In this document: positions 37,968 to 42,364 of the stretch, piece by piece
How positions within the stretch are numbered: position 1 is the stretch's first letter
Layout of the letters: each line of letters begins with the position of its first letter
Sequence record: MT446392.1
Source of the DNA: Escherichia virus TH15
DNA: 64,000 nt
Strand: one strand, 5' to 3'
Position numbers and translations under genes: made by a program
Notes under the pieces: model-generated
What the model was told of the DNA's origin: nothing
Seen by the model: only the letters and a program-made list of their open reading frames with translations
Database searches by the model: none

Positions 37968-37988
37968 AAAGGGCTTCGGCCCTTTTTG
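37968..37988 (+). terminator. Intrinsic terminator downstream of nrdB
   Basis: aagggcttcggccctttttg. Confidence 0.65.
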
Positions 37989-37991
37989 TCT

Positions 37992-38402
37992 ATGAAACAA
38001 ATCGCTGACGAATACAGTTTTATAAAATATGCGGAGTTAGAGTTAGTCGATGGTAAAATCCCTATCCTTACTCTCGCAAACAAGAAAAATGTTATCTACG
38101 CTATTTCAGTTGACGACGAACTAGTGTATATTGGTAAGACGAACAACCTGAAGAAGCGAATCAATTATTACCGGACTGCAATCAATCGTATAGAACAAAC
38201 GAGTGATTCAAACAAATCCCGGATGATACATGAAGCTTTACAAGAAGGCAAAAAGGTGGTATTCTATGCACGACAATGTTTCAATCTGTCAATGACCAAT
38301 GAACTTGGTACGATGTCAGTCGAAACGATGTCTCTGGAAGAGCCGATGTTCATCAAGCTTTTTAATCCCCCGTGGAATTACCAACATAAGGTGAAGAAAT
38401 GA
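37992..38402 (+). CDS. denA: Endonuclease II (GIY-YIG)
   Basis: IADEYSFIKYAELEL, VIYAISVDDELVYIGKTNNLKKRINYYRTAINR and FYARQCFNLSMTNELGT are near-identical to remembered T4 DenA. Track start 37986 is TTG. Confidence 0.9.
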   Translation: MKQIADEYSFIKYAELELVDGKIPILTLANKKNVIYAISVDDELVYIGKTNNLKKRINYYRTAINRIEQTSDSNKSRMIHEALQEGKKVVFYARQCFNLSMTNELGTMSVETMSLEEPMFIKLFNPPWNYQHKVKK

Positions 38403-39535
38403 TTGAATTATATGATAACTTAATGAAGCTTTGCGCTGAATCCGATAAAGGTAAGTTTTTCTATACGGATTTTGTTTCTCCATTTGAAACTAAGTTCCGC
38501 ATCTTTAGCTATAACTATGCTTCCTATAGCGATTGGCTCCTTGATGATGCATTAGAGTGCCGCGGCATTATGTTTGAAATGGATGCAGATGGCCCAGTTC
38601 GTATTGCAGCTCGTCCTATGGAAAAGTTCTTTAACTTGGGCGAAAATCCGTTGACCATGGATATCAATATGGATGAAGTTGCGCTGGTCATGACCAAGGC
38701 TGATGGCTCTCTTGTCTCCACTTATATGGACCAGACCAACATTGCCTTTAAATCAAAGGGGTCAATCAAAAGCTCCCAGGCAGCAGAAGCACTACAGGTA
38801 TTCAAACAAGAACACCGTATAGCTTTCCGTGAGCGCGTAACTGAAATTACTGAAGCTGGTTATACATGCAATATGGAATATGTTGCACCAACCAACCGCA
38901 TTGTTTTGCCTTACCAGGAACGTGACCTGATTTTACTGAACGTTCGCCATAATGAAACTGGTGAATATATCCCTTATCAGGATTTGTTTAAAGATGCCGC
39001 GCTTCGCCCATTCCTGGTTGAAGCATATGACCCGGCTACAATTGAAAACGTCCGTGATATGAAAGAGATTGAAGGCTTTGTCTATGAGCTGGCTGACGGT
39101 CGCAAATTTAAAGTTAAGACAGAATGGTATTGTGCTTTACACCATACCAAGGATTCTGTTAACAATAACCAGCGTCTTTTTGAAGTTGTTGTTGCAGGCG
39201 GTGCAGATGATGTTATTGCCATGTTTACTGGCGATGATTATGCTCGTGAAAAAGTTAATGCCTTTACCATTGCACATCTGGATTATCTGTCCAATACCCT
39301 GGGACTGTTGCTTGATGCCCAGAAACAGTTGGCGGGAAAAGACCGACGCGAGTTTGCGATTAAAGGTCAAGAGTTGTGTAAACCATATCCGGGTTTGTTC
39401 TCCGTATTAATGAACACCTATCAACGTCCCCAGGAAACAGAGCAAACCATCGCTCAAATCAATAATGTTTTCCTTAAAAATCATAAACTTTACATCCCGG
39501 TGGACTACCAAGCGGATGTAATCCTGCCTGAATAA
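38399..39535 (+). CDS. 63: RNA ligase 1 (T4 gene 63 product)
   Basis: 378 aa versus T4 374 aa; FRIFSYNYASYSDWLLDDALECRGIMFEMD, lysine-nucleotidyl motif TKADGSLVSTYMD. Confidence 0.9.
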   Translation: MIELYDNLMKLCAESDKGKFFYTDFVSPFETKFRIFSYNYASYSDWLLDDALECRGIMFEMDADGPVRIAARPMEKFFNLGENPLTMDINMDEVALVMTKADGSLVSTYMDQTNIAFKSKGSIKSSQAAEALQVFKQEHRIAFRERVTEITEAGYTCNMEYVAPTNRIVLPYQERDLILLNVRHNETGEYIPYQDLFKDAALRPFLVEAYDPATIENVRDMKEIEGFVYELADGRKFKVKTEWYCALHHTKDSVNNNQRLFEVVVAGGADDVIAMFTGDDYAREKVNAFTIAHLDYLSNTLGLLLDAQKQLAGKDRREFAIKGQELCKPYPGLFSVLMNTYQRPQETEQTIAQINNVFLKNHKLYIPVDYQADVILPE

Positions 39536-39545
39536 TAAAAAGGGG

Positions 39546-39574
39546 TGTACAAGCCCCTTCTTTCTATACATAAT
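39546..39574 (+). promoter_or_regulatory. Early promoter whose -35 (TGTACA) lies in the loop of the preceding terminator hairpin
   Basis: Hairpin ggggtgtacaagcccc; CATAAT at 39569-39574 with 17-nt spacer. Confidence 0.5.
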
Positions 39575-39605
39575 GGTTCCATCAACTACTGATGAGGACC
39601 AAACC

Positions 39606-39839
39606 ATGTTAAACTTAATTACAAATGACAGAGTTACAAAGGCATATGGTGACAGAAATGATGGAATCTATGTCTACAAGGGAGACCGCCGGATTGGTTT
39701 CATTACTGACCTGAAGGCCAAATTGTTAAAAGAACTGAAAGACCAAACAGGTGATTCTGGGTTTAGAGCAAGAGCTAAAAAGAAAGATGAGCGCCTGGGT
39801 GCAAACTCTTTTGGTCCTAGAGGTTATAACCGCTATTGA
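39606..39839 (+). CDS. Small protein paralogous to the N-terminal segment of the downstream alc-position protein
   Basis: 77 aa; shares YGDRxDGIYVYKG...GF(I/L)TDL(K/R)xKL with the ORF at 39850; GAGGA SD; preceded by a promoter. Confidence 0.4.
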   Translation: MLNLITNDRVTKAYGDRNDGIYVYKGDRRIGFITDLKAKLLKELKDQTGDSGFRARAKKKDERLGANSFGPRGYNRY

Positions 39840-39849
39840 GGAAAATATT

Positions 39850-40353
39850 ATGAATATGCAACTGATTTCAAATGATATGATTGTTGATGTATATGGTGAC
39901 CGCCATGACGGAATCTATGTTTATAAGGGTTCCAAAAATGTTGGGTTCCTTACTGACTTAAGAAAGAAACTGGCGTCTGATAATAAGTTGAAGACCAAAC
40001 AGAAGGAATATCGCAATAAGAAATCAGAAGAGCGGAAAGAAGCCCTTCATGAATCTGTTCCAGAAATGGTTGACTTCTTAAAGAACCATTTGGTTAAATA
40101 TGATGCAGAAGTGTTCATCAATCAGACCCAACCTAATGTGCATATCAATGGATGTGTTTGTTATGTTGTGGTTGAACCCCTGACACTTCAACACCGCCTG
40201 GGAATTAAACACCCAGTGTTAACCCAGGATGATATGGCGGATGAAGTTGGTAATCAGTTCCGCATTTCAGCATCTGACAGTACAAATCACATCCTCCTGA
40301 ATGGTTTATCCCAGGATGATATTGTTGAGGTAATCATCAAGTTATGCAAATAA
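39850..40353 (+). CDS. alc: Alc-position protein (candidate host-transcription terminator Alc)
   Basis: Exactly 167 aa like T4 Alc and located directly after RNA ligase 1 as in T4; sequence identity not verified from memory. Confidence 0.55.
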   Translation: MNMQLISNDMIVDVYGDRHDGIYVYKGSKNVGFLTDLRKKLASDNKLKTKQKEYRNKKSEERKEALHESVPEMVDFLKNHLVKYDAEVFINQTQPNVHINGCVCYVVVEPLTLQHRLGIKHPVLTQDDMADEVGNQFRISASDSTNHILLNGLSQDDIVEVIIKLCK

Positions 40354-40697: not shown

Positions 40698-40984
40698 TGA
40701 AATCTATCATGGCAGTATGTTTGGCTATTGGACTTGTTTCATGCGCCCAGAAGCCTGTTGTGGAGCCCACAATTCAAGTTCATCCTAATTGGCCACAGAC
40801 ATTAATGGAATACCGTCAGCAATGGGAAGTGAAGGTAATTGACGGTCAACCATGGGTTGGTATGCCTTTTGAAGCATCGCAAGAATTCCGGATTTGGATG
40901 AATGATGTAAAAAGGTATGTACATGACCAAAAAGGTATGTTATGTTATTATCGTTCTGAACTAAAAGAGGAGCGTTGCAAATGA
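40694..40984 (+). CDS. o-spanin outer-membrane lipoprotein (Rz1-like, pseT.2 analogue)
   Basis: Signal peptide with lipobox LVSC; small Cys-containing periplasmic domain. Confidence 0.6.
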   Translation: MMKSIMAVCLAIGLVSCAQKPVVEPTIQVHPNWPQTLMEYRQQWEVKVIDGQPWVGMPFEASQEFRIWMNDVKRYVHDQKGMLCYYRSELKEERCK

Positions 40985-41117: not shown

Positions 41118-41148
41118 GCTCCTACGGATAATAATTGAGGAAATAATT

Positions 41149-42364
<1,216 letters not shown>

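Follow-up and report, generated by a model that had tools for sequence, protein, structure and literature searches.

Why would a phage carry, directly upstream of a complete alc gene, a second ORF (open reading frame) resembling only the N terminus of Alc, and does that second ORF do anything? Alc of phage T4 terminates host transcription on cytosine-containing DNA, and its action depends on residues R368/P372 (paf) of the RNA polymerase beta subunit (PMC2988021, PMC2939025). We analyzed a 64,000-nucleotide (nt) stretch of Escherichia virus TH15 (MT446392.1), hereafter the window. On its plus strand, an ATG-initiated ORF of 77 amino acids (aa) at positions 39606 to 39839, here called alcb, precedes an ORF of 167 aa at 39850 to 40353, exactly as placed by the original prediction. 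That prediction, made from sequence alone, held that the short ORF is a truncated tandem copy of the start of alc with its own promoter and Shine-Dalgarno (SD) sequence, and that it might act as a decoy, a modulator, or an alternative specificity module. Here we find that alcb is a partial duplicate of alc maintained by selection. A fuller account, in which this duplicate is expressed and acts in the manner proposed below, strikes us as the best reading overall, though the chances of its being right are roughly even, with lower confidence in its mechanistic half.

Pfam family PF17527 (ALC) matched the downstream ORF along its full length (profile positions 1 to 176; expect value [E], 4.3e-51), as did phrog_1253 (E, 4e-75), removing the concern that it might be unrelated to Alc. 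Pairwise alignment bore out the N-terminal block said to be shared by the two ORFs: 30 of 62 residues were identical by BLASTP (48%; E, 5e-18), and both of the motifs originally noticed, YGDRxDGIYVYKG and GF[IL]TDL, were present. Profile-profile comparison equated alcb residues 2 to 57 with Alc residues 3 to 58 at 99.5% probability. At the sequence level, the similarity is thus far beyond chance. It is confined to one part of the family: PF17527 matched alcb only over profile positions 3 to 62 of 177 (E, 4.4e-10), a full-length match to the Alc family (profile of ∼170 residues) was not obtained, and Alc residues ∼60 to 167, comprising a long helix and a C-terminal alpha/beta domain, have no counterpart in alcb. 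Within the shared module, the residues invariant in Alc (I6, G16, D20, G21, I22, G32, and D36/L37) have conserved equivalents in alcb (I5, G15, D19, G20, I21, G31, D35, and L36, with Glu replacing G20 in one variant). Other near-fixed Alc positions have changed, such as Met10, which is Arg or Leu in alcb. The description of alcb as a truncated paralog was therefore only partly right: the N-terminal part of Alc is present and the rest is absent, but this is no bare truncation, since the ∼14 C-terminal residues form a motif foreign to Alc.

AlphaFold2 models of the two proteins showed the same predicted fold for this N-terminal module (N-module). For Alc (predicted local distance difference test [pLDDT], 93), the model comprises a helix (residues 8 to 15), a beta-hairpin (23 to 33), a 47-residue charged helix (34 to 80), and an alpha/beta domain (87 to 166; positions 40108 to 40347) whose predicted structure resembles the C-terminal domain of MotA. 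The long helix is rich in K, E, and R with few hydrophobic positions, a composition that suggests a rigid single helix rather than a coiled coil. In alcb, the N-module (codons 1 to 46, 39606 to 39743) is predicted to contain a helix (residues 7 to 14), a beta-hairpin (22 to 32), and the start of a further helix; these elements correspond to Alc residues 8 to 33, and pLDDT is ∼90 across alcb residues 11 to 40. A variable, basic, Gly/Pro-containing linker follows (codons 47 to 63, 39744 to 39794; pLDDT ∼50 or below), with indels and poor conservation between lineages. Model confidence falls below 50 for residues 50 to 77, and disorder is predicted for residues 58 to 77, which have no alignable counterpart in Alc. 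The protein nevertheless ends in a conserved motif, G-x-N-[ST]-F-G-P-x3-N-[KR]-[YF]-COOH (codons 64 to 77, 39795 to 39836), defined by comparison of four lineages. Among these, overall identity to the window protein is 45 to 48%, and N67, F69, G70, P71, and N75 are invariant. The tail is basic (net charge, +4 to +5) and aromatic rich in all lineages. We detected no second occurrence of the motif within the window, no known motif or family matching the tail, and no NCBIfam match; neither Alc nor the alcb profile, used as queries, matched the sequence of any solved structure, although a BFVD model exists for the alcb protein. In one metagenomic contig (L005, positions 2440 to 2667; ERZ27275844), an alcb of the Gaprivervirus type carries a frameshifting deletion of ∼38 nt, so that the conserved tail is lost and the ORF overlaps alc.

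The existence of this gene was already on record. Shigella phage SP18 (GenBank GQ981382, 2010) annotates the pair as alca and alcb, the latter with the text "similar to N-terminal region of JS98 Alc". SP18 alcb, VR7ORF243c, and phrog_17715 represent the same gene as alcb of the window, 95 to 99% identical and at the same position, and all are annotation-only records. The window protein belongs to phrog_17715, a 77-aa family labeled "inhibitor of host transcription" (residues 1 to 77 on profile positions 1 to 77; E, 5.8e-54); judging from the similarity, that label is inherited from Alc. Literature searches on alcb and on SP18 or VR7 alc found no functional study. As far as the literature was searched, the tail motif, the selection, the wider distribution, and the regulatory hairpin described below are new.

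How widely is the short gene carried? Window DNA is 98.8% identical to that of Escherichia phage vB_EcoM_VR26 and 92.6 to 98.5% identical to 32 further records of the VR7/SP18 group (genus Gaprivervirus), to which, by this measure, the window belongs. With tblastn, 34 of 795 phage records having an Alc-like N terminus contained the full-length short gene, and these were the Gaprivervirus-type records found by DNA comparison. alcb is intact in all 33 to 34 isolate records and was also found, at 77 to 78 aa in each, in divergent uncultured relatives: L002/L003, L004 (P0035), and L019 (P0045). In L002, L003, and L004 the gene is flanked by rnlA and alc, and 10 nt separate its stop from the alc ATG; for L019, whose 941-nt contig ends right after alcb, length alone could be confirmed. 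An exhaustive phmmer search of 1.84 billion representatives revealed no further stand-alone Alc N-terminal family, barring a 63-aa ORF in phage G28 (see below). It returned three representatives of the short family, two Alcs, and six large repetitive proteins, which we discarded as compositional artifacts because they matched unrelated Pfam families by the dozen. Scanning viral and metagenome contigs yielded a single additional Gaprivervirus-type copy.

Patterns of substitution indicate that alcb is under purifying selection. Within the genus, the ratio of nonsynonymous to synonymous differences per site (pN/pS) was 0.03 to 0.28 for alcb, comparable to the 0 to 0.15 of alc. Between lineages, alcb pN was 0.27 to 0.49 against saturated pS values of 0.65 to 0.93; pN/pS between lineages was ∼0.18. 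The nonsynonymous rate was ∼3-fold higher in alcb than in alc (nonsynonymous divergence [dN], 0.37 to 0.59 versus 0.15 to 0.20). Because alcb is intact in the isolates, is kept in uncultured lineages, has low pN/pS, and retains an invariant tail motif, we conclude that it is a real, maintained gene.

The short ORF most likely arose by tandem duplication, as originally proposed, in that the spacing of the copies equals the length of the unit: the DNA of the two copies is 58 to 74% identical and offset by 244 to 247 nt, approximately the length of alcb plus the 10-nt spacer. Similarity between the copies seems to reach through the SD. The duplicated unit would thus have comprised the alc SD and roughly the first 60 to 78 codons; in the simplest model, a tandem duplication of the SD with alc codons 1 to ∼78, the first copy would end at the TGA inside the TGAGGA of the second. 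With synonymous sites saturated between lineages and N-module identity at ∼50%, we judge the duplication to be old. A phylogeny of the 46-residue N-module, in which monophyly of the short copies had a bootstrap value of 9.5%, resolved neither a date nor a single origin.

Tequatrovirus vB_EcoM-G28 (MG867727; L006, 2793 to 3494) illustrates a possible route. Here a perfect 351-bp (base pair) tandem duplication, joined at an AAGCG microhomology and unique among ∼500 Tequatrovirus records, spans the rnlA 3' end, the early promoter, and alc codons 1 to 48, yielding a 63-aa ORF with the Alc N terminus and a 33-aa ORF from an rnlA fragment. Like alcb, the 63-aa ORF arose when part of the rnlA/alc junction was duplicated in tandem, and it stands alone upstream of an intact alc. 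Unlike alcb, which is old and refined by selection, it is recent, with 100% identity between its copies along 351 bp, and its tail comes from rnlA read out of frame. The event is independent of alcb and could be an assembly artifact.

The part of alc paralogous to alcb also differs among close relatives of the window. Relative to VR20, positions 39805 to 40041 (alc codons 1 to 64) form a divergent patch of 70 to 88% nucleotide identity between flanks of 97 to 100%; all 14 amino acid differences in Alc lie within residues 1 to 75, leaving the C-domain unchanged. The patch has the look of an allele exchanged by recombination, covering precisely the alcb-paralogous part. Gene conversion between alcb and the 5' end of alc was not detected in this comparison, with alcb matching each alc allele 7 times at the differing sites.

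Expression signals around alcb only partly agree with the original claim of a private promoter and SD. A good SD, GAGGA, does lie 8 nt upstream of the ATG. The candidate early-type promoter (39545 to 39574), by contrast, is not private to alcb but appears to be the positional homolog of the T4-type alc early promoter: GTGTAC (39545 to 39550) and CATAAT (39569 to 39574) are separated by 18 nt, a site that the promoter scan listed as TGTACA-17-CATAAT. L002, L003, and L004 at this position, and the T4-like phage G28 upstream of alc, share the arrangement, with GTTTAC-18 followed by TAGTAT, CATAAT, or TATAAT (TATAAT in G28). GTTTAC is the T4 early -35 element. Promoter matches in this region occur at chance level, and support for the site comes from its positional conservation. 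Immediately following the rnlA stop, a GC-rich hairpin resembling a terminator (39540 to 39559; scan match AAGGGGTGTACAAGCCCCTT then CTTTCT) overlaps the -35-like element and folds within a region with a z-score of -3.7. It occurs in the Gaprivervirus lineage only and is absent from L002/L004 and G28.

Downstream, the alcb TGA stop overlaps the alc SD (TGAGGA, 39837 to 39842), 10 nt before the alc ATG. The overlap is kept in L002, L003, and L004; in SP18 and L005, a TAA stop precedes TGAGGA. The 10-nt spacer contains no promoter for alc, and RNA structure at the point where alcb ends and alc begins was not significant (z, +1.0). Because alc follows so closely and has no promoter of its own in the spacer, the arrangement suggests that alcb and alc form one operon with translational coupling.

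A second hairpin may govern translation of alcb itself. At 39575 to 39600, the 6 to 10 nt right after the -10 hexamer can pair with the alcb SD (GAGGA, 39594 to 39598), with predicted free energies of -12.0 kcal/mol in the window (z, -2.8), -10.5 in L002 (z, -3.7), and -12.2 in L004 (z, -4.05). Arm sequences differ among these three lineages, and the alignment contains three compensatory pairs. The fold is absent in G28 and is abolished by deleting its first 6 nt. Since the -10-like hexamer abuts the 5' arm in all lineages, the transcript would be expected to start inside that arm. Hairpins that sequester the ribosome-binding site block translation of upstream transcripts of the T4 genes e, soc, 49, and I-TevI. 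The alcb hairpin resembles these in being stable and compensated and in that it would hide the SD within upstream RNA; a start inside its 5' arm, if used, would give translatable RNA. It differs in that the proximal promoter of the T4 examples is late, whereas that of alcb is of the early type (GTTTAC/-10) with a predicted start.

What might such a gene do? The mechanism of Alc has been described as unsolved (Hinton 2010, PMC2988021), and Alc bound at its polymerase site was proposed to read cytosine in downstream or nontemplate DNA (Opalka et al. 2010, PMC2939025). We found no domain assignment for Alc in the literature searched; its predicted module-spacer-module form fits an anchor-plus-sensor design. 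alcb resembles T4 Alc in its N-terminal ∼57 residues, including all the invariant ones, in its locus, and in its early promoter type. It differs in lacking residues ∼60 to 167 and in having its own tail motif, and transcription termination is an activity known for Alc itself.

On this basis we propose that alcb and alc would be transcribed as a single early operon from the ancestral alc promoter, with translation of alc coupled to termination of alcb. alcb would be translated only from promoter-proximal transcripts, its SD being hidden in the hairpin of RNA that reads through from rnlA. The N-module would serve as the docking module of Alc, most likely on host RNA polymerase near beta R368/P372, and the Alc C-domain as the DNA-sensing part. 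By filling the same docking site without a sensor, alcb would tune or limit Alc-dependent termination, acting on Alc or the polymerase there while its tail provides a second contact; alternatively, the tail may recruit another protein partner or a nucleic acid to the polymerase. The originally suggested role as decoy or modulator is plausible. Several points weigh against this proposal. It is not obviously useful to produce an antagonist and its target from one operon, and the promoter and transcription start were assigned from consensus and positional conservation. A single origin of the short copies is argued from their shared tail, length, and position. Given the L005 frameshift, either the tail may not be needed everywhere or that assembly may be wrong. 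Moreover, selection on alcb shows only that the gene does something.

Small proteins of comparable design have been described in eukaryotes. MicroProteins, truncated paralogs of which only an interaction domain is left, behave as dominant negatives, as with Id versus bHLH factors and LITTLE ZIPPER. Like them, alcb is a small, single-module paralog of a multidomain regulator from which the effector or sensor domain is gone. The concept is a eukaryotic one that implies dominant-negative action, and we liken alcb to it by architecture alone.

The genomic setting offers a possible reason for retuning Alc. According to two papers (PMC8056088, PMC12115623), Gaprivervirus genomes contain alc, denA, denB, and dCTPase but not dCMP hydroxymethylase. 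It has been suggested in print that DNA of this genus may bear an unknown modification, and the genes missing from VR7 agree with this. In the syntenic slots of VR7, we found no gene 42 or beta-gt between uvsX and imm (L018, 24131 to 25345) and no alpha-gt between genes 47 and 55 (L018, 34641 to 35676); VR7 retains dCTPase (gene 56), 42.1, and a-gt.2 to a-gt.5. Co-occurrence of alcb with the missing hydroxymethylcytosine pathway is a single evolutionary event and only a lead. The more specific idea that alcb is a "micro-Alc," docking at the Alc site on host RNA polymerase and retuning or gating Alc within this altered DNA chemistry, is one we consider improbable as it stands. If true, it would make alcb part of how Gaprivervirus uses Alc with different DNA chemistry (alc, denB, and dCTPase are kept; dCMP hydroxymethylase and glucosyltransferases are missing) and would give a first domain-level handle on a 30-year-old question of Alc mechanism. 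The alc/alcb pair is confined to a phage group lacking the usual hydroxymethylcytosine pathway, a puzzle noted previously (PMC8056088, PMC12115623). More generally, a selected stand-alone N-module naturally splits Alc into testable halves: should alcb bind RNA polymerase, the N-module would be the anchor and the MotA-like C-domain the likely cytosine sensor. At present, alcb is a confirmed and already annotated Alc variant, of use mainly for dissecting Alc, and the functional link is speculative.

Among other explanations, the one that fares best is that alcb has acquired a new function unrelated to the Alc target, with the N-module serving only as a stable scaffold and the basic tail binding some other host protein or RNA. 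The tail motif is the most strictly conserved new feature, the tail is basic and aromatic rich throughout, and near-fixed Alc positions such as Met10 have been replaced. However, all invariant residues of the Alc N-module are kept, arguing that the original contact is kept too, and the tail matches nothing known; we consider this explanation unlikely, if worth keeping in view. A further alternative is that alcb is a partner subunit of Alc, forming a hetero-oligomer through the N-module or helix that alters specificity or activity with no competition for the polymerase. Apparent cotranscription and translational coupling would favor coassembly, paralogs often keep self-interaction surfaces, and a genus that keeps alc without dCMP hydroxymethylase might need Alc to be retuned. 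Nothing points to oligomerization of Alc, however: the charged helix looks single rather than coiled coil, and alcb has lost most of it. We therefore regard a partner subunit as doubtful.

The selection data largely refute the view of alcb as a decaying, nonfunctional remnant whose ORF is open by chance. Its short length, its ∼3-fold-faster nonsynonymous change relative to alc, the frameshifted tail in L005, and the clearly recent, similar remnant in G28 would be expected of such a remnant. Against this, the gene is intact in 33 to 34 isolates and in three further lineages with saturated synonymous sites, at pN/pS of 0.03 to 0.28, with a constant length of 77 to 78 aa, an invariant new tail motif, and a conserved SD and covarying hairpin, so that decay is very unlikely. 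Scarcely credible, and rejected on conservation, is a single product, either a longer Alc started upstream or a frameshift alcb-Alc fusion: no stop interrupts the alc frame in the 37 codons before the ATG in the window, SP18, and L002/L003, and automatic gene callers report an Alc of 188 to 189 aa (P0003, P0004), but in L004 a stop closes this frame 7 codons before the ATG, conservation between lineages is seen for the alcb frame and not for the upstream peptide, the Alc family begins MNxQLI in every phage compared, and a strong SD precedes the ATG at 39850. The 188- to 189-aa calls start at an ATG inside alcb (39787 to 39849) and are probably miscalled starts.

The surrounding genes, all on the plus strand, run nrdA, nrdB, denA (37986 to 38402), rnlA (gene 63; 38399 to 39535), alcb, alc, an Rz-like spanin gene (start, 40344), an Rz1-like spanin gene (start, 40694), ORF 41116 (start, 41116), and pseT (start, 41457). 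The order matches 63-alc-pseT.3-pseT.2-pseT of T4, and alcb lies where Alc is found in T4-type phages, between rnlA and pseT.3/Rz. Two further patches distinguish the window from VR20 and SP18: a stretch of low identity with many indels between the Rz1-like gene and ORF 41116 (41122 to 41222), and a patch of 75% identity within the Rz1-like gene (40762 to 40821).
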